Source: an uncultured Thermoplasmata archaeon
GTDB taxonomy: Archaea; Thermoplasmatota; Thermoplasmata; Lutacidiplasmatales; UBA184
Assembly: GCA_963773945.1 (NCBI GenBank)
Contig: CAVZDD010000005.1
Coordinates: 768,503 to 832,502 of the forward strand
Reading direction: 5' to 3'
DNA: 64,000 nt
Shown here: one piece after another, positions 26,825 through 58,290 of the stretch
Numbering within the stretch: the first letter of the stretch is position 1
Layout: the number at the start of each line of letters is the position of its first letter
Made by a program: the position numbers and the translations under genes
Notes under the pieces: generated by a model
Databases searched by the model: none
Told to the model about the DNA's origin: nothing
What the model saw: the letters and a program-made list of their open reading frames with translations, nothing else

Positions 26825-27295
26825 TCACCTCGACGCGGTTTCTAAGCGCTCCGCGGTCCACGACACGGGGGAGAATCGGCGCAGGTCGGGGTCGAGCTCG
26901 AAGGCCCCGATGTCGCCGGCCCGTCCGTGATCGACCGCAAGCACGAGGTAGGTGTACCAAGGCCAAGCATGCTCTTGGTCGAAGAGCGACGGAACGGCCG
27001 GGTGGTCCGGATGCGAGTGGTAGAATCCGACGACCGCTTCTCCCGTTCCTTCGAGGGAACTCTCGAATTGGCGGAGCGTTTCGGGTGGTATCACGAATCG
27101 GCGGCCCCGAGGGCCTTCCACTTCGTTCTCCATCGGCGTCACTCGAACGAGTCGCCGAATAGGGTGAGTCTCGCCCGCCGGCTCCCGCGCCACGAGGAAG
27201 CCGCAGCACTCCTCCGGGTAGGTGGCCTCCGCGTGACGGCGGATTGTTTCTACGAGTTCGGGGGAAAGGGAGACGTTCACGGAGCTTCCTCCCAA
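26825..27295 (-). CDS. JAMM/MPN+ metalloprotease (Mec+/CysO-peptidase-like)
   Basis: EECCGFL...GFYHSHPDHPAVPSLFD contains the E...HxHx7Sx2D JAMM motif. Confidence 0.8.
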   Translation of the reverse strand: MGGSSVNVSLSPELVETIRRHAEATYPEECCGFLVAREPAGETHPIRRLVRVTPMENEVEGPRGRRFVIPPETLRQFESSLEGTGEAVVGFYHSHPDHPAVPSLFDQEHAWPWYTYLVLAVDHGRAGDIGAFELDPDLRRFSPVSWTAERLETASR

Positions 27296-28257
27296 TGCCG
27301 CTCGGAAAGGTAGCGGTCTCCCCCATCGGGGAGGATCGTCACCATGACGGCCGGAACGCTGAGCGTTGCGGCGATGGAGAGCATCGCCGCGACGACCGCG
27401 CCGGACGAGGTGCCCACGAAGAGCCCCTCTTCACGGGCGAGTCGACGGGTCATCAACTGGGAATCTTCCGTGGACACCCGAACTGTTTCGTCAATCCACC
27501 GTTCATCGTAAGTCCCCGGCCGCAGGGCGGTGGGGAGGTGTTTCAATCCCTCGATACCGTGCATGGGTCCTTCCGGCTCCACCCCGATGACCCGAACGTT
27601 GGGGAATACCTGCTTTAGGAAACGGCCGGCGCCCGAGATGGTCCCGCCTGTCCCCACCCCCGCTACGAAGTGGGTCACGCGTCCCGACGTTTGCGTCCAG
27701 ATCTCGGGCCCGGTGCCGGTGAAGTGCGCTTCGGGATTGGCCGGATGATTGTACTGGTCGGGGTAGTAGTATCGCCCCGGCTCGGCGGTGGCGCGTCGTC
27801 GGGCTTCGCGTTGGGCCCCATCGGTTCCTTCCGCAGGATCGGTGAAGAGAATCTCGGCGCCATAGGTCCGGAGTCGCTGCACCCGCTCGGGACTCGCGTT
27901 GCGGGGAAGGCAGACCGCGACCGGGAAGCGGAGGCGCGCCCCTAACATCGCATAGGCGATGCCAGTGTTGCCGCTCGTCGCGTCGATGAGAGTCCTGCCG
28001 CCTCCCAGCGCGCCGGACGCAAGGGCGCTGCGGACAATCCCGAACGCGGCCCGGTCCTTGACTGAACCCGTGGGATTGAGGAATTCGGCCTTCCCCCAGA
28101 GCTCGTGCGTGGGCGGAAGGTCGTGACCGATCCGCTCCAGTCGGAGGAGAGGTGTGTTCCCCACGGTGCCAATCGAAAGGTCCGGTCCGGTCGGTGCGGG
28201 TCCCAACGCGGCGTTGGCCGCCGTGGAGTCTACCGAAGCTGGATGAGATGCGTGCAC
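27277..28257 (-). CDS. cysM: PLP-dependent cysteine synthase (CysM/CysK family)
   Basis: PLP lysine motif SVKDRAA, glycine loop GTGGT, 326 aa. Operonic with the JAMM and MoaD-E1 genes. Confidence 0.85.
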   Translation of the reverse strand: MHASHPASVDSTAANAALGPAPTGPDLSIGTVGNTPLLRLERIGHDLPPTHELWGKAEFLNPTGSVKDRAAFGIVRSALASGALGGGRTLIDATSGNTGIAYAMLGARLRFPVAVCLPRNASPERVQRLRTYGAEILFTDPAEGTDGAQREARRRATAEPGRYYYPDQYNHPANPEAHFTGTGPEIWTQTSGRVTHFVAGVGTGGTISGAGRFLKQVFPNVRVIGVEPEGPMHGIEGLKHLPTALRPGTYDERWIDETVRVSTEDSQLMTRRLAREEGLFVGTSSGAVVAAMLSIAATLSVPAVMVTILPDGGDRYLSERHWEEAP

Positions 28258-28407
28258 GTCCGTCCCACCTCAGGGACGGCGCCGCTCCAATAAGCCCTGC
28301 TGGTGTCCGGTTCAGCGAGTCCGATATCGACGCCCTCGTCGCCTGGGTCGCCCGCAACCCGCCCGCTCGAACAGCCCTAAGGAATCCGACTAAGCCAACC
28401 CGTTCTC

Positions 28408-28437
28408 AGGCGGGGGGCAACCCCCGCCTATTTTTCC
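28408..28437 (+). terminator. GC-rich hairpin (9-bp stem, GCAA loop) followed by T5 run
   Basis: aggcggggg-gcaa-cccccgcct-atttttcc in the cysM / small-ZnF divergent intergenic region. Confidence 0.3.
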
Positions 28438-28483
28438 TGACACCGCGGATCTGCTGCGGTCAGATCCACGAAGCCGGGGGGCC

Positions 28484-28846
28484 GTGCCCTTGACGCGACG
28501 GACAATCCTGGCGTGTCCGGTCTGTGGACTCGAGATCAGCGGCTACAAAGGCGCGCTGGTGGACCACCTTCGCGACGTTGACGGACGCGAGGACGCCGAA
28601 ATTCTTGCGGTCTTCGTCGTCCGAACCCGGCGCACGACCCTCTCCCTCTCACCCCCGGACCCGCCGAAAACCGACGGTGGACCAATCACCATCGGGCCGG
28701 ACATGCCGGCGCGCGACGCCGGTCGGATCTACCGGGCGCAGTCCCGGGTGAGCGCGAAACCAAAGGCCGTAGGAGGCGGCCGTCGGAGGAAGTCGACCTT
28801 CGAGAGCTCGTCGCCCGGATCCCGTGGCGAGCTCGAGGTCGCATAG
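28484..28846 (+). CDS. hypothetical small protein with CxxC motif
   Basis: GTG start, 120 aa, LACPVCGLEISGYKGALVDHL. No recognisable family. May belong to the host or to the adjacent element. Confidence 0.45.
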   Translation: MPLTRRTILACPVCGLEISGYKGALVDHLRDVDGREDAEILAVFVVRTRRTTLSLSPPDPPKTDGGPITIGPDMPARDAGRIYRAQSRVSAKPKAVGGGRRRKSTFESSSPGSRGELEVA

Positions 28847-29083
28847 AGACGGGCCGTCCTCAGCGCCACTTCCCTCCGAAGCAGGAGGAAGGGTGCCAGC
28901 TCATCCGGCAGGTCGTGACGATCGAGACCTGGACTGATAATCAGCATGGAACCTGGACTCTTGAACCTTCGGCACGACGGCGCGGGCCACGCACGTGAGT
29001 GTGTGTACAATCCCTGGGGCTTGGCAACCCCAGGAGCCGCCGTGTTCGCAAACCGCGGGGCAGCGGGCTTAGAGGACGGTCCA

Positions 29084-29118
29084 TCGATTTTCCTCTGTTT
29101 CTCTCTCGATTTTCCTCT
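29084..29118. repeat. 13-bp direct repeat tcgattttcctct x2 (22-bp period)
   Basis: Copies at 29084-29096 and 29106-29118, in the lower-GC left-end intergenic region of the element, 55-90 bp upstream of ORF 29171. Confidence 0.5.
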
Positions 29119-29170
29119 ACATGGAGGAGCAACCGACGGTCCGCGATATTCACACACACCAGGAGAAACG

Positions 29171-29527
29171 ATGGCACCACGAAGAAAACTGGACCGAAGG
29201 AAGCTCGAGCTGATGGCCGAACGAGTAAGGGACGCGGGGACCGCGGGCGTGCACCGCTCGATCCTGGCGGTGGCCTATGGGATCTCCCCGTCGACGCTGC
29301 GCGTCGAGTACGACGCGGTCCTATTGGACGTCGCGCCCGACCTCTACCGGCACGGCGCGACGTACTACGTCGACTCGGACAAGAGCGCGCAGCTTCTCAA
29401 CGCGCTCGTCCTCGAACGACAGGGGGACGTGGGGGGTGCGTTCGAGATCCGCCAACAGCTCCGCACGGGGCGGGCCCCCGTGACGGTCGGGCAGCGTACC
29501 CTCGACTCCGAGGAGGCGGGCTCGTGA
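29171..29527 (+). CDS. hypothetical protein (element ORF)
   Basis: ATG at 29171 with GGAG 7 nt upstream. 118 aa, MAPRRKLDRRKLELMAERVRDAGTAGV... The basic N-terminus may bind DNA. Confidence 0.5.
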   Translation: MAPRRKLDRRKLELMAERVRDAGTAGVHRSILAVAYGISPSTLRVEYDAVLLDVAPDLYRHGATYYVDSDKSAQLLNALVLERQGDVGGAFEIRQQLRTGRAPVTVGQRTLDSEEAGS

Positions 29528-30048
29528 GCGCCCAATCCGTAACATCCTCTCGGCGGAGGCGTGCAACACTTCGCCGTCGGGTCTGCGAGGCCTGCGGAAT
29601 CGACTTCCGCGCCCGACGAAGGAGCGCCAGGTTCTGCTCCACTCGGTGCAGGGTCAGCTCCATGAGGTGGCGGCGTTCCGACCCACTGCTCCGTTTGATC
29701 GCCGCCGAACGGTTGCTGCGCGAAGCGGCCGCGGCCTTTCGGGCCCGTGTCGACCACGACCCGGGAGATTCCGCTCAGATGAGAGCCGAAGCGAGGTTGG
29801 GGGCGCGAGTCTACCAGCTGGCGCTCGAGGTATGGGTACGATCGGCACACACCGCTGGCATCCCCCTCAGTGACTTAGGCGGCGCGCCCAAAAACAACCC
29901 CGAGCTTCGGGAACTTTGGATCCTGGGAGGCATCCCCTCGGCCCGATTGAGTGAATTTATCCAATTCGTCCAGCGGAGGTGTCTCACTGTCGCTGACAAC
30001 CGATTCAACATGAACCCACTCGGGCCGAAGTGGGAGGCGAGCTCGTGA
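29524..30048 (+). CDS. hypothetical protein with CxxC...CxxC zinc-binding motif (element ORF)
   Basis: GTG start overlaps the upstream stop (GTGA). Contains RRRVCEACGIDFRARRRSARFCSTRC. Confidence 0.45.
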   Translation: MSAQSVTSSRRRRATLRRRVCEACGIDFRARRRSARFCSTRCRVSSMRWRRSDPLLRLIAAERLLREAAAAFRARVDHDPGDSAQMRAEARLGARVYQLALEVWVRSAHTAGIPLSDLGGAPKNNPELRELWILGGIPSARLSEFIQFVQRRCLTVADNRFNMNPLGPKWEASS

Positions 30049-30404
30049 GGCGTCGGGGACCGCCGCGGCGGCGGGGCGACAGGGCGGACTGGAGCGCGCT
30101 CCAACGGGAGCTCTCCAGGACGGAAAGGTCGGTTCGTCGGCTCGGGCCGGTGTTGGACACGCTGGAGGAAAGATACTCTCCCGCGAAGAACGCTCCCAAC
30201 GTGGGAGCGTTCTCTCCCCGACCCGAGACCTACACGGTACAAGTCTGTACCTGGTGCCATCACAGGGCAGCCCACCACCGCCGAGGGGATTGCGACGTGG
30301 AAGACCCAAGGACGTTGACTGGTCGGTGCACGTGCAAAGCCGCCGCGGTACGTGACAAGAACGGGAGCTGGGTCATCGTGGTCCGCCCGAAGGGCCAGCC
30401 ATGA
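30030..30404 (+). CDS. hypothetical protein (element ORF)
   Basis: ORF of 124 aa, basic, with Cys/His cluster CTWCHHRAAHHRRGDC. Start uncertain. Confidence 0.35.
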   Translation: MGGELVRRRGPPRRRGDRADWSALQRELSRTERSVRRLGPVLDTLEERYSPAKNAPNVGAFSPRPETYTVQVCTWCHHRAAHHRRGDCDVEDPRTLTGRCTCKAAAVRDKNGSWVIVVRPKGQP

Positions 30405-30411
30405 AGACCGC

Positions 30412-30606
30412 TCAGGCGAACCGCGCGATCATGTCGCCCCACTTCTGGTTCAGCACGTCGATTCGGTGGAAGAACTCCCCGATGTCGGTCAACATCTTAT
30501 CCCGCTCGACGGGGGACTCGGGGACCTCTATCTCGTTCAGGATGCGCAACATCTCGTCGGCGAGCTCGTTCATCTTCACGACGGGGGAGCTCCCGTTCTC
30601 GGGCAT
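30412..30606 (-). CDS. hypothetical small protein (64 aa, element ORF)
   Basis: ATG..TGA on the reverse strand in a lower-GC patch. MPENGSSPVVKMNELADEMLRILNEIEVPESPVERDKMLTDIGEFF... is acidic and protein-like. Convergent with the upstream + ORF. Confidence 0.4.
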   Translation of the reverse strand: MPENGSSPVVKMNELADEMLRILNEIEVPESPVERDKMLTDIGEFFHRIDVLNQKWGDMIARFA

Positions 30607-30631
30607 GGAGCCCGCGATGGCGGGGATGTAG

Positions 30632-30814
30632 ATGGCGAAGAGGGGGACCAGGTGGACCGTCACGGTCACGTTCGACTTCGATGAGGAGAGCTTCACCTTC
30701 ACGACCGACACCCGCTTGCTGCTCGACCGGCTCAGGCTGCTCCTGGACCACGACGACTTCCCGAACTGCGTGGTGACGATCTCGAAGTGGACGCCCCAGA
30801 ACTTGGACGGGTAG
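30632..30814 (+). CDS. hypothetical small protein (60 aa, element ORF)
   Basis: MAKRGTRWTVTVTFDFDEESFTFTTDTRLLLDRL... with regular codon-3 GC. Confidence 0.4.
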   Translation: MAKRGTRWTVTVTFDFDEESFTFTTDTRLLLDRLRLLLDHDDFPNCVVTISKWTPQNLDG

Positions 30815-30820
30815 TAGCAG

Positions 30821-30970
30821 ATGACGCTGAACGTTCTCAGCAAGGAGCTCCAGGTGGTCGCCGCCAAGCACGGGTACGTCGTCACGAAGCAGTACAACCT
30901 GGTCCGCCTGAACTCGGTCACGGTCTACGTGCGGCTCGACAAGACCCACGCCGGGCTCGTGGAGAAGTAG
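30821..30970 (+). CDS. hypothetical small protein (49 aa, element ORF)
   Basis: MTLNVLSKELQVVAAKHGYVVTKQYNLVRLNSVTVYVRLDKTHAGLVEK. The stop abuts the resolvase start. Confidence 0.4.
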   Translation: MTLNVLSKELQVVAAKHGYVVTKQYNLVRLNSVTVYVRLDKTHAGLVEK

Positions 30971-31567
30971 ATGTTGGAGCCGGCGACCCACGCGAGCCGC
31001 CCGCTCGTCGTGTTCGTGCCGACACGCGCCACGACGGCGCTCCTCTTCCTGAGGTGCAGCACGTCCGAACAGGACTACACGCGACAGCGTGAGGACCTGG
31101 AGCGCGACGCCGCACGGCTCGGTTGGGAAGTCGTCGGCACGATCGGTGCGTACGTCTCGGGCACGTCGAACGAGAACGAGCTCAACGAGCTCCGCGCCCG
31201 GGCGGCCCGGCACGAGTTCGATGTCTGCATGGTGTGGGAGCTCTCCCGGCTGTCCCGGAGAGGCCCGGCGGCCGTTTTCGAGCTCCTGACGCAGCTCGAA
31301 CGATTGGGCACGCGCGTTTGGTCGCACTCCGAGACGTGGCTCGACCAGGACGGCCCTGCGCGTGAGCTCCTGATCTCGGTCTTCAGTTGGTGGGGCGCGA
31401 TGGAGCGCGCGGCCATTTCGGCGCGCACAAAATCCGGCATGGCGTCAAGGAAGGCGCTTGGGATCCACGTCGGTCGGCCGCAGGGCGCGAAGGACCGGCG
31501 GCCCCGCAAACGCCGAGCGACAAGGGGACCCTTCTCCCGGCTTGAGTTCGCGTCGGGGTCTCGATAG
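30971..31567 (+). CDS. serine recombinase (resolvase/invertase catalytic domain)
   Basis: LRCSTSEQ nucleophile-Ser motif near the N-terminus, ELSRLSRR and ERAAISARTKSGMASRKALGIHVGRP motifs of the resolvase catalytic domain. Short basic tail; no obvious C-terminal HTH. Confidence 0.75.
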   Translation: MLEPATHASRPLVVFVPTRATTALLFLRCSTSEQDYTRQREDLERDAARLGWEVVGTIGAYVSGTSNENELNELRARAARHEFDVCMVWELSRLSRRGPAAVFELLTQLERLGTRVWSHSETWLDQDGPARELLISVFSWWGAMERAAISARTKSGMASRKALGIHVGRPQGAKDRRPRKRRATRGPFSRLEFASGSR

Positions 31568-31664
31568 CAAATCGGGGGCAGAGCTGAGGGGTCCCCCTTT
31601 TTGGAGCCCGATTTTCCTACCCCTTTTTCTACGGGTTGGTGCGTGGGCTTGCTTGCTACTACCC

Positions 31665-31970
31665 ATGCGGAGAAAGAACAAGGCGTGTCCTGAGGGCTGC
31701 AATCGCTTATTCAGCGGCCAAGGTCTCGTCGGTCACTTACTTTTTGTTCACAAAATCAAGCTGGTTCGGACGATCCCGACCCCCCCCACCCCCGTGCCAT
31801 TGAGATATGTTCTTCCCGAAGACGAGCCGCGCCTTCACGATGAAATCCGGATGGCAGCGAGGCCGTCGTTCACCTCCGCGCCGGCTTCGCCACCGGCACG
31901 GGCCTCGCCGCCCTCCGTGAGATCACACCGCTTCCCAGTCTCTATCGACTTGGGGGAGGCTCCTCGATGA
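31665..31970 (+). CDS. C2H2-type zinc-finger protein (element ORF)
   Basis: MRRKNKACPEGCNRLFSGQGLVGHLLFVHK gives C-x3-C-x11-H-x4-H with conserved hydrophobics. Pro-rich C-terminus. Lower-GC upstream region. Confidence 0.55.
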   Translation: MRRKNKACPEGCNRLFSGQGLVGHLLFVHKIKLVRTIPTPPTPVPLRYVLPEDEPRLHDEIRMAARPSFTSAPASPPARASPPSVRSHRFPVSIDLGEAPR

Positions 31971-32329
31971 GCGGCACGGAGCTCGCGACGGGCCGAAACC
32001 GCAGGGTGGCAACCTTCTCTCCATCGGCCTTGGAGCAATCCCGCGATCATTTGCTTCAGGGTTTACTCGAACAGGACCGGGTGTTCCTCGAGGCGTGCGC
32101 GCAGACGGGCACCGACCCACGCGCATCCGTGCGTGTAGCCGTAGGGGGGCCTGGGCTCGTCGCGGTCTCAATCAAGCCTGAGTGCGTCGCGAATCTCCTG
32201 CGGTTTGTGCGGAGCGCGCCCCGGCGACTCGAGCTCGATTTCACGGAAGCGCCGGTCTTCGACGACGAGCCCACGCCTTCACTCCCTCCTCCCTCACTGT
32301 CCAAACCAACGGACAAAAACAGGAGTTGA
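31967..32329 (+). CDS. hypothetical protein (element ORF)
   Basis: ATG overlapping the upstream stop (ATGA). 120 aa, no recognisable motifs. Confidence 0.4.
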   Translation: MSGTELATGRNRRVATFSPSALEQSRDHLLQGLLEQDRVFLEACAQTGTDPRASVRVAVGGPGLVAVSIKPECVANLLRFVRSAPRRLELDFTEAPVFDDEPTPSLPPPSLSKPTDKNRS

Positions 32330-32333
32330 AAAC

Positions 32334-32639
32334 ATGGCAAGACTGAGCTACGCCTTTCCCGATGGAGAGTTCGACCGACCGATGGGACCGATGGCGACGC
32401 TGGGCGACCCGCTCCGAAGTGAGCTGTCAATCGGCGCACGCCGGGCGTGGGACAGTCCCACCGGGCAGGCGCGACGCGAGCAACTACGCGCCGCGGCCAG
32501 AGGCCCCGCTGGCGAGATGAGCCGGGCGATCGCGCCGTTCCGGGCCCAGATCTCGAACGCCTTTCGGCGTGTGGGTCCGTCGCTGTCGACCGCCTACCGG
32601 TCGATCTGGAGCGGCTACGGATACGAGAGCCCCTTCTGA
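32334..32639 (+). CDS. hypothetical protein (element ORF)
   Basis: ATG at 32334 with AGGAG upstream. 101 aa, MARLSYAFPDGEFDRPMGPMATLGDPL... Confidence 0.4.
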   Translation: MARLSYAFPDGEFDRPMGPMATLGDPLRSELSIGARRAWDSPTGQARREQLRAAARGPAGEMSRAIAPFRAQISNAFRRVGPSLSTAYRSIWSGYGYESPF

Positions 32640-32671
32640 ACGGAAAGGTGAATCGTAAGGAGGTTCAGAGC

Positions 32672-33070
32672 GTGGGAGCCGGAGGGGTTGTCGCCGGTGG
32701 CCTTGTCGCGGGCGGGATCGTGTACGGAGTGGGACTCCATTTCGGCTGGTGGGAACTACCGACGTGGCTCCAGCCACCGGCCGCGCCGGCCGCGGCGTCG
32801 CAAGCCTCAGCGGAGGGAGCACCGCCGGCGCGATACGGACTGAGGTTCACCCAAGAGGGGCAAACGAACACCGATGTAGGTCCGAGCGCGCGCTACCCCG
32901 GAGCAACTGAGCGCCGCGCAAGGTTCAGCTACGTGCAATCTCCGCCGTTCGTGGTCGAGCCCGAGGGCGCCGCCGCGGCGCGTAGGTCGTTTCAGGCCAT
33001 AGAATCCGGACGGACGAGCCAAGAAAACGCCGTCGTGCTGCGAAGATTATTCGCTACGCCGTTCGGCTGA
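32672..33070 (+). CDS. hypothetical membrane protein (element ORF)
   Basis: GTG start with GGAGG upstream. Gly-rich N-terminal TM helix VGAGGVVAGGLVAGGIVYGVGL. Confidence 0.4.
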   Translation: MGAGGVVAGGLVAGGIVYGVGLHFGWWELPTWLQPPAAPAAASQASAEGAPPARYGLRFTQEGQTNTDVGPSARYPGATERRARFSYVQSPPFVVEPEGAAAARRSFQAIESGRTSQENAVVLRRLFATPFG

Positions 33071-33090
33071 GTGTGGCACATTGTGGCACA
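33071..33090. repeat. tandem 10-bp repeat gtgtggcaca / ttgtggcaca
   Basis: Two adjacent copies, 9/10 identical, directly after the stop of ORF 32672..33070. Confidence 0.5.
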
Positions 33091-33297
33091 ATCACTCGAT
33101 GATCGACAAAGGGGTCGACTTGCACGGGGTCGTCTTCGGCGTCGAGAACGTGGCGCCGGTTGTTCCGGTGAGCTCCGTCGCGGCGCCCCCACCAACGACA
33201 GGTTGATCGGAGCTCTCTCGGAAAACGTATGAACTACTTTCGCTTCCTCGATTCAGTGTCGACTGTCAGCGGCACGGGTGATGCGCCTCGGCGCCTA

Positions 33298-33321
33298 CCC
33301 GCGATTCTGACAGATCGCGGG
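33298..33321. promoter_or_regulatory. perfect 8-bp inverted repeat cccgcgat-N8-atcgcggg immediately upstream of integrase start
   Basis: The repeat lies 12 bp upstream of the TTG at 33333 and is flanked by ggcgcc-tc-ggcgcc. Confidence 0.35.
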
Positions 33322-33332
33322 CGGGCGCCCCC

Positions 33333-34517
33333 TTGACTTCTGAGTTGGTCCGCGGCGTTTCGGGCGAGTTCTGGACCTCGTCCCACGATGGGACCAGGTT
33401 CCGGCTGTGGGTCCCGACCGAAGCAACCCCGGCGCCGACGCCGTCCAAATCCACGCTGGCCTTCGAGACGATCCTGCCCTCACCGTCGTCACTCTCCCGA
33501 CTTGTCGAGGTGAAAACGGCCGGTCCCCCGCCACCTTGTACGCCTTCATGCGCATCACCGACAGAAACAGTTTCATCAACCGTTTCGAGGAAGTTCGTGC
33601 CCTACAAGGAGCGCGGACTGTTCGAGCAGGTAGAGAAGTGGTCACGAGAACAGGGTGGAGACGAGGGAACGGTGGACACCCGGGTCGACCGGGTCCTTCT
33701 GTTCAGCCGCTCGGTCGCCACCCTTGGGTTCCCCCAACCGTACAGCGGGCGCGACGTAACGCGCTCAATGGTGGAGAGGTTCAAACACGACGGGATCTCG
33801 CCGCCGACGCCGCACAACATCCAGCACCATTGCGCCGGGCGGAGGCTCGCCCCGAACAACATTCACAACACGCTGCCCGAGGTTCGGTCTTGGCTAATCT
33901 CGTGCGGCAACCCGCTGGCCGCGGATCGCCGACTCTGGAAGATGGTCGGCCGCGCGCAGTCGCTCTACGTGGACCAGATGAACGAACCACGCGAGCTACG
34001 CGAGTACCTGAACGCGATGGCGCACGACGCGCGCCTCCAGGCGGAGGTCATCCTGATGGGGCCGGTGCAGATCCGTACCGAAGCGGCGCTGCACGTCCCA
34101 CCGGAGAACCTGTCTCTTTCGGCAGACCCAAGAGTGTTGTCGACCGTTCTGGTGTTGGACGAAGTCAAGTTCGGGGAGTCGTACCGGACCGGCGTCCCTC
34201 CGCAGGTCGTCGCGGCGCTGATGAACGCGGTAGTGGGGATGGAGCCGGGCAAGCCCATCTGGAGGACGTCGACGTCCGACTTCCGCCGCAGGTACAAGTG
34301 CGCGATCGCCGCCCGTGGGCTGAAGTACTACGCCCCCCGAGAACTCCGGAGTTCGGTCGCGACGTTCGCGGTGGAGGCAGACGTCCGCCCCCAGGTTCTA
34401 CAGGGGCAGATGAACCACGCCGAGTACGGAACTACGGCGAAGTTCTACGCCAAGGTCCGGCCGAAGACGCGCCTCGTGGACCTGGAGAAGTTGGGCCGCT
34501 ACCTCATGGAGGAGTAG
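33333..34517 (+). CDS. int: tyrosine recombinase / integrase
   Basis: C-terminal PRELRSSVATFAVE...LQGQMNHAEYGTTAKFYAKV gives the R...H-x-x-(E/R)...Y tyrosine-recombinase catalytic pattern. The coding frame was confirmed by codon-3 GC against the two other frames. The N-terminal ~100 aa is low-complexity, so the true start may lie downstream. Confidence 0.8.
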   Translation: MTSELVRGVSGEFWTSSHDGTRFRLWVPTEATPAPTPSKSTLAFETILPSPSSLSRLVEVKTAGPPPPCTPSCASPTETVSSTVSRKFVPYKERGLFEQVEKWSREQGGDEGTVDTRVDRVLLFSRSVATLGFPQPYSGRDVTRSMVERFKHDGISPPTPHNIQHHCAGRRLAPNNIHNTLPEVRSWLISCGNPLAADRRLWKMVGRAQSLYVDQMNEPRELREYLNAMAHDARLQAEVILMGPVQIRTEAALHVPPENLSLSADPRVLSTVLVLDEVKFGESYRTGVPPQVVAALMNAVVGMEPGKPIWRTSTSDFRRRYKCAIAARGLKYYAPRELRSSVATFAVEADVRPQVLQGQMNHAEYGTTAKFYAKVRPKTRLVDLEKLGRYLMEE

Positions 34518-34538
34518 ACCATGCCCGGGCGGCGTCGT

Positions 34539-35186
34539 TCACCTCAACTGAATCAGGTGCGTGCACGTCAGCCCGCCTCGCGTGATCGAATCCTCGAGCT
34601 GCAGGCCCGACTGTCCGAGAAGGGCCTCGGTGAGATTCTTGTCGAAGACCTCGCAGAGCAGGTAGGCGTGGGTCAGTGCGGTGTGCCGGAACACGCAGTT
34701 GGTCCGGTTGATCCGAACCTCTCCGTCCGGCAGCGTCTGAACCTGGGCACGGAAACCGAGCTTGTTGAGGGCGTCCGCCAGCGCGACGATCCGTTCCTCC
34801 CTCGTTCCCTCGGGAGGGATTTCCGCCGCGATCTGACGCGCCATGCGACGGGCGGCCTCGGCGAACAGCGCGGAGGTGTATCCCTCTCCTTCCTGGGCGA
34901 GGAGTTCCTCCATGACGGAGTCGAGCAGGAACTCGTACCGACGGGGAAACAGATCCTGGCCCTGGGAGGTGAGCACGTACCGCTTTTTCGGGCGGCCGAC
35001 GCCTTCGCGATGGAAGGAAGGACTGACGAGGCCCCGATCCTCGAGGCGGTCCAGGTGCCCCCGAACGGCGCTCTCCTGTATTCCGAGGTTACGAGCCAAG
35101 TCGCGCGCGCTGCGGGGGGAGACGGCGAGCGCCTCGATGATCTTGCCGCGGGTGTTGTCGGTCAGCATCAGGTCGCCAGTTGCCAT
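34539..35186 (-). CDS. winged-helix transcriptional regulator with Cys-rich C-terminal domain (SufR-like candidate)
   Basis: N-terminal wHTH (IIEALAVSPRSARDLARNLGIQESAVRGHLDRLEDRGLV). C-terminal CVFRHTALTHAYLLC...GGLTCTH offers 3 Cys plus His ligands. Divergent from sufC. Confidence 0.6.
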   Translation of the reverse strand: MATGDLMLTDNTRGKIIEALAVSPRSARDLARNLGIQESAVRGHLDRLEDRGLVSPSFHREGVGRPKKRYVLTSQGQDLFPRRYEFLLDSVMEELLAQEGEGYTSALFAEAARRMARQIAAEIPPEGTREERIVALADALNKLGFRAQVQTLPDGEVRINRTNCVFRHTALTHAYLLCEVFDKNLTEALLGQSGLQLEDSITRGGLTCTHLIQLR

Positions 35187-58092: not shown

Positions 58093-58290
58093 ATGCAATC
58101 GAACGCAATCCGGCCGCCCAGCCGCCGCACATTGCGGACCACGTGTCCTCGGTGCACCCGCCTGATGGAGCTTCAGCGGATGCGGGACCATCTGCGCGAG
58201 TCCCATCATCTCGAGAGTGCGGACTTGGATGCCGTGCTGCTCGTCGCCCGACGGGATGCGCTGCGCGGTCCGGCCCACGGCCGCCCCTAA
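58093..58290 (+). CDS. small C2H2-like zinc-finger ORF (65 aa)
   Basis: TTCPRCTRLMELQRMRDHLRESHH gives C-x2-C-x11-H-x5-H. Lies in the 330-bp gap between two reverse-strand genes. Confidence 0.3.
   Translation: MQSNAIRPPSRRTLRTTCPRCTRLMELQRMRDHLRESHHLESADLDAVLLVARRDALRGPAHGRP

Follow-up and report, generated by a model that had tools for sequence, protein, structure and literature searches.

The AFV1p06 family of crenarchaeal viruses (PDB 2LVH) comprises small, stand-alone proteins with one classical-type zinc finger between disordered extensions at both termini, and 1:1 zinc binding as well as DNA binding have been experimentally demonstrated for AFV1p06 (PMC3541406). CPxCG-related proteins, which are very small, archaeal and often unannotated, are defined by CPxCG, CPxCx or CxxCG and a second Cys/His pair that is spaced by 2-3 residues and lies 7-40 residues away; the motif occurs in 8% of archaeal proteins of <100 aa, members of the class are numerous but frequently overlooked in gene calling, and Brz is known to regulate transcription (PMC2253796). 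On the level of whole elements, the cryptic integrated elements of Thaumarchaeota (PMC6563490) are small, encode an integrase, carry short att repeats and mostly orphan ORFs, are inserted at the end of a protein-coding gene and contain no recognisable virion or replication genes. All of these traits are shared by an integrative element in the 64-kb stretch of Thermoplasmata DNA analysed here (the window). This element contains a 101-aa ORF, termed ZnF1, which resembles the AFV1p06 family in its small, stand-alone nature, its single finger of classical type and its disordered-looking extensions, and the CPxCG-related proteins in its CP-beginning Cys pair followed by a second pair of the Cys/His type. 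With slightly better than even confidence, we interpret ZnF1 as a small, basic protein that regulates the element through a single finger and is encoded by the first gene of a rightward operon.

The element has a length of 6.3 kb (28249-34570), with a tyrosine integrase gene at the right end, a serine recombinase gene and otherwise orphan small ORFs, some of which contain zinc-ribbon-like Cys pairs. An exact 13-nt att core is present at both ends (Table 1). The sibling assemblies L015 (a 2.0-Mb contig), L017 and L018 contain the empty site, in which the HTH-regulator and PALP genes are directly adjacent; they are 98.8-99.7% identical to the flanks of the element, and their junction of 28271 with 34548 includes an overlap of 32 nt. 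The insertion point is a 28-nt overlap between the HTH-regulator gene (34539-35186, minus strand) and the PALP-family gene (27277-28257, minus strand). The element is polymorphic, being present in some members of the population and absent from those represented by the three empty-site assemblies. With integrase, att repeats and empty sites all found, it is a real element mobilised by a tyrosine recombinase, and the earlier note, which had assigned ZnF1 to an element, is borne out by these features and by the serine recombinase. No match to the whole element was found among plasmid records, and queries of the DNA collections with the recombinase, o120 and the integrase brought up no close relatives. 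Contig L013, which is 6209 nt long and spans almost exactly the element, is a 95%-identical copy and may represent a free or variant form.

Several further observations were made within the element. Its left 1.3 kb (28300-29600) are far more diverged in the L013 copy, with more indels than elsewhere. Owing to an extra C in L013 (window position 32439), the N-terminus of o101 (32334-32639) continues into the frame at 32447-33070 as a 245-aa ORF (P0039; L013 4028-4765); the difference is due either to a frameshift in the window copy or to an error in L013. The region 30400-30970 shows an extreme codon-position skew (GC3 0.97-0.98, with GC1 and GC2 of ~0.44) unlike other parts of the window, and ORFs on both strands whose third positions coincide. 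Gene calls differ for this region, with a 151-aa minus-strand gene in L001 and plus-strand genes of 76, 60 and 49 aa in L002, L004 and L013. Exact protein matches assign the window to contig JBAURT010000080 of MAG GCA_049581325.1, and a nearby RLI/ABCE1 gene confirms that the DNA is archaeal.

Table 1. Coordinates of the features discussed in the text (window positions unless a contig is named).
Feature	Coordinates	Strand	Evidence or remark
Left att core, GTGCGTGCACGTC	28249..28261	.	In 34-nt imperfect direct repeat 28232-28265, repeat family D1
Serine recombinase, resolvase catalytic domain + GRP + short basic tail	30971..31567	+	Pfam PF00239, E=1.5e-25
Two T-rich boxes, GATTTTCCTAC and CTTTTTCTAC; putative TATA-like promoter of the ZnF1-o120-o101-o132 unit, or operator	31609..31632	+	
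ZnF1, candidate gene	31665..31970	+	ORF list, composition, codon score
ZnF1 finger motif, C8-x3-C12-x11-H24-x4-H29, F16 and L21 in core	31686..31751	+	Regex scan, residue positions
o120, orphan, 120 aa, ATG overlapping ZnF1 stop	31967..32329	+	Gene call in L002 and L013; present in protein collection
Tyrosine integrase, right end of element	33597..34517	+	Pfam PF00589, E=2.5e-07; gene call in L001
Right att core, GTGCGTGCACGTC	34558..34570	.	In 34-nt imperfect direct repeat 34541-34574, repeat family D1
ZnF2, 65 aa, C18-x2-C21-x11-H33-x4-H38-H39, chromosomal	58093..58290	+	GenBank hypothetical protein MFZ0830642.1
C2H2-like small called genes in related recombinase loci	L006 770-946; L010 7841-8152 (-); L012 8013-8198		

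ZnF1 starts with ATG, ends with TGA and has the translation MRRKNKACPEGCNRLFSGQGLVGHLLFVHKIKLVRTIPTPPTPVPLRYVLPEDEPRLHDEIRMAARPSFTSAPASPPARASPPSVRSHRFPVSIDLGEAPR, which includes the finger peptide ACPEGCNRLFSGQGLVGHLLFVHK; both the ORF and the peptide quoted in the earlier note agree with the ORF list and the sequence. The predicted protein is strongly basic (pI 10.8) and consists of a basic arm, MRRKNK, at the N-terminus, one C2H2-like finger and a tail that looks disordered and contains 23% Pro over residues 38-101, as the Pro-rich tail of the same description implied. The ATG lies 7 codons ahead of the first Cys. The motif had been read as C-x2-4-C-x12-H-x3-5-H with a conserved Phe/Leu core. 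The core is present, with F16 at C2+4 and L21 at H1-3 filling the hydrophobic positions, whereas the spacing was miscounted: the central spacer is x11 and not the classical x12. A canonical C-x2-C-x12-H finger has an identical C1-to-H1 span of 16. A scan of the 64 kb in all six frames with the loose pattern C-x2-4-C-x11-13-H-x3-5-H returned two matches, ZnF1 and 58144-58209, each with the hydrophobic core. In first-order Markov simulations, the expectation per window was 0.48 matches for the loose pattern and 0.017 for the strict pattern (with core), compared with the two observed. The ZnF1 motif exceeds chance expectation, and since the strict pattern was defined after the sequences had been seen, this rarity is indicative only and is no formal evidence.

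ZnF1 is a sequence orphan. No homologue was identified in 5.8 billion protein clusters, and a phmmer search of 1.84 billion representative proteins returned six matches, all of them tandem-repeat artefacts that owe their scores to weak alignments summed across repeats. The only one to align across the ZnF1 finger (40% identity, two one-residue gaps) is P0005, a eukaryote-like canonical C2H2 array; a profile of its fingers scores ZnF1 at 16.2 bits, P0005 itself having been picked by similarity to the query. Neither pattern-plus-tblastn scans covering contigs from genomes, viruses and metagenomes nor tblastn searches of phage/virus and plasmid records identified ZnF1, and the comparison with archaeal viruses to which the earlier note had pointed yielded no homologue in viruses, plasmids, genomes or metagenomes. 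Profile searches, likewise put forward as a check with PF00096 and PF12874, gave no match to these families: zf-C2H2-type Pfam families are absent at E<=1 for full-length ZnF1 and at E<=5 for its 38-aa finger, the sole Pfam match being DUF4729 (E = 0.065-0.34). ROS_MUCR did not match ZnF1 in the Pfam scan at E<=1, and PHROGs contain nothing for ZnF1 or the neighbours to its right. The AlphaFold2 model of ZnF1, built zinc-free from a single sequence, has a mean pLDDT of 60.5 and a low-confidence helix at residues 21-34 that spans both His; of the beta-beta-alpha finger that a structure prediction was meant to reveal, one helix is seen and the beta-hairpin is not. No PDB match to this model was found with Foldseek, and the search of PDB sequences was uninformative, with no match of the AFV1p06 type.

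Within the element, called genes leave a single gap of ~400 nt; ZnF1 fills it, reads in the direction of its neighbours and starts 97 nt downstream of the serine recombinase. Its TGA overlaps the ATG of o120 (ATGA), the pattern expected of coupled genes. Upstream, a T-rich TATA-like box, TTTTTCTA, ends 34 nt before the ATG; in confident genes of the host genome, such boxes end 27-32 nt before the ATG in an upstream comparison, and the box-to-ATG geometry of ZnF1 matches that of bona fide genes of the same genome. Four of the five plus-strand window matches to TTTT[CT]CT(0-2)AC lie inside the element (28432, 29110, 31612 and 31624), upstream of plus-strand ORFs; the copy at 29110 is kept in variant L013 and the copy at 28432 is not. 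ZnF1 is probably a gene, as its motif, placement, box and frame suggest.

On these grounds we infer that ZnF1 is translated and leads a rightward unit, ZnF1-o120-o101-o132, with the serine recombinase to its left and the tyrosine integrase to its right. The protein would chelate zinc via C8, C12, H24 and H29 in one finger of the C2H2 type, which would be flanked by the basic arm MRRKNK and a basic helix end, HKIKLVR, and followed by the putatively disordered Pro-rich tail. As in single-finger DNA binders, by analogy, a short DNA site would be recognised by the helix and binding strengthened by the basic arm, and ZnF1 could regulate the element's own promoters, probably as an autoregulator, with the T-rich boxes as candidate targets. 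This proposed role as a DNA-binding regulator draws on the precedents of AFV1p06 and Brz.

A substantial competing possibility, which we consider real without being the probable one, is that ZnF1 is a chance open frame in a ~400-nt non-coding control region and that its C2H2-like pattern is coincidental; the region could then provide the o120 operon with its promoter and leader, or hold a site for the recombinase or an origin of replication. ZnF1 sits in the longest low-GC stretch of the element (55-58% over 31560-31860; window G+C 65%), which is intergenic-looking. Its codon usage does not set it apart from spurious frames: among stop-to-stop ORFs with a length of 80-130 codons, a mostly spurious set, the ZnF1 score of -0.124 lies near the 70th percentile. 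The GC1/2/3 values of ZnF1 are 0.61/0.55/0.66, this GC3 being the lowest among the candidate ORFs of the element; GC3 is 0.85-0.98 in the recombinase, integrase and further genes of the element. The ZnF1 frame nevertheless scores best of the six local frames and is alone in showing GC3>GC1>GC2. A chance frame is also consistent with the missing homologues and profile matches, with a tail rich in Pro, Ser, Ala and Arg that is typical for spurious frames of GC-rich DNA, and with the gene callers, which left ZnF1 uncalled in every assembly seen, though its neighbours were called. By our calculation, a 101-codon open frame is ~7.5% likely per frame at the local base composition. Furthermore, the breaks of two independent assemblies at 31690 inside ZnF1 hint at structural heterogeneity. 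Coincidence would, in turn, have to account for a strict C2H2 pattern expected just 0.017 times per window, for an ATG placed 7 codons before the Cys, for the ATGA overlap and for a TATA-like box at the right distance. Neither repeats nor RNA structure explain the region, for which no stable fold (z = +1.48), Rfam family or tRNA was found, and 300-nt leaders are rare in archaeal mRNAs. Variant L013 differs within ZnF1 by one synonymous (L21) and one non-synonymous change (P73Q); it is nearly identical to the window over 29800-33900 and therefore powerless for dN/dS on ZnF1. The broken contigs, L003 and L005, both end 25 nt into ZnF1, and contig L004 ends at 31954. A search for repeats accounting for the ends at 31690 found none, and they may reflect strain heterogeneity or a drop of coverage in the low-GC stretch.

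Two further readings accept a coding function in this region and differ on the finger. ZnF1 might be translated without forming a beta-beta-alpha zinc finger, having another metal site or none and serving in protein-protein contacts, which we regard as improbable. Its x3/x11 spacing is non-canonical, Pfam offers no match, the AlphaFold2 models of ZnF1 and of the ZnF2 family (see below) are all helix with no hairpin, and several predicted haloarchaeal zinc-finger micro-proteins are reported not to bind zinc (PMC11241148). The C1-to-H1 span and both core positions nonetheless fit a classical finger, and the models carry little weight because they are zinc-free and built from one to four sequences. 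It is more improbable still, to the point of being negligible, that the finger belongs to the serine recombinase as its missing C-terminal DNA-binding domain, joined to it by a +1 frameshift (31458-31567) or separated by mutation. The ZnF1 frame is open back to 31458, where it overlaps the 3' end of the recombinase gene, and the recombinase has no HTH domain (no HTH_7 in Pfam at E<=1). This fusion was rejected, since homologues of 172-225 aa with <=72% identity align to residue 196-197 of 198 and end fingerless, stopping where the window recombinase stops; as they end at the same residue, the serine recombinase is complete as is. A small basic single-finger regulator at the head of a rightward unit remains our preferred interpretation of ZnF1.

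The second C2H2-like small ORF of the window, which the earlier note had also listed, is present and is here termed ZnF2. Homologues that are 78-80% identical were identified in two other Thermoplasmata assemblies (L020 743-940 and L021 1690-1887), with synteny kept between genes for an H+-pyrophosphatase (H+-PPase) and an arginase-family protein; ZnF2 is convergent with the latter, and their stops overlap. The family retains both Cys and three adjacent His, its codon changes are 26-33 synonymous versus 14-15 non-synonymous and fall mostly at third positions, and an upstream TATA-like box, CTTTCATAC, is kept in three genomes. ZnF2 is therefore a real, chromosomal and conserved micro-protein under purifying selection, whereas ZnF1 is an orphan in a mobile element. 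The AlphaFold2 model of ZnF2 shows two helices at moderate confidence and no hairpin, and has no match in the PDB. Members of the ZnF2 family (58093-58290; P0034, P0043 and P0044) resemble ZnF1 in the x11 spacer, H-x4-H, CP, a basic stretch ahead of the finger and the size class; the two fingers share 36% identity over 25 columns, a similarity without significance in hhalign (probability 2.5%, E = 0.019).

Homologues of the serine recombinase have 54-72% identity and originate from Thermoplasmata and metagenomes; all 27 homologues (116-225 aa) have PF00239 alone and no HTH_7. Those with 58-72% identity are located in other mobile-looking loci that have almost nothing else in common with the element, apart from its o118 ORF, which also occurs in L008 and L009. 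In three of four non-redundant related recombinase loci, a small called gene contains a C2H2-like pattern right after basic residues, and this layout, with a basic stretch just before the first Cys, is common to ZnF1, ZnF2 and the small genes of the related loci. The three motifs in 35.9 kb compare with 0.52 expected (P ~0.025). The L010 gene is fully canonical (C-x2-C-x3-F-x5-L-x2-H-x5-H), and the small genes of L006, L010 and L012 score far under the Pfam zf-C2H2 threshold. With the window counted, four of five non-redundant loci have a small C2H2-like ORF no more than ~2.5 kb away from the recombinase gene; in the window it is directly downstream. The motifs of the related loci lend modest support to the general idea of the earlier note that such fingers recur in these elements. 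The broader claim of the earlier note, that C2H2 proteins mark mobile elements, gains from the excess over chance in the related recombinase elements and is weakened because the validated example, ZnF2, is chromosomal; archaeal chromosomes, moreover, commonly encode small zinc-finger proteins (PMC2253796). That the HTH-less recombinases of this clade use a separate C2H2-like finger protein for site recognition, as a split two-component recombinase, is conceivable as a long shot.

Compared with the systems described above, ZnF1 is ordinary in kind. In place of the C-x2-C-x12-H-x4-E pattern and the conserved structural extension of AFV1p06, it shows C-x3-C-x11-H-x4-H and a Pro-rich tail; the two proteins share no detectable sequence similarity, and their hosts are a hyperthermophilic crenarchaeon and a mesophilic-type, GC-rich Thermoplasmata archaeon, respectively. 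With its CPEGC (x3) and H-x4-H, ZnF1 falls outside the definition of the CPxCG-related class. By strict sequence tests, it fails to qualify as a demonstrable member of the Pfam C2H2, AFV1p06, CPxCG-related or Ros/MucR groups, and it would nevertheless work like the proteins of these groups. The element differs from the thaumarchaeotal cryptic elements in its phylum and in the addition of an HTH-less serine recombinase. If real, ZnF1 adds a sequence orphan to the few C2H2-type proteins of archaeal mobile elements and takes the theme of fingers on such elements to uncultured, GC-rich Thermoplasmata, a gain that is modest because archaea are already known for many small, under-annotated zinc-finger proteins. 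Firmer by-products of the comparison are a cleanly delimited 6.3-kb integrative element with presence/absence polymorphism and a conserved chromosomal ZnF2 family, by which such proteins are seen not to be specific to mobile elements in this lineage.
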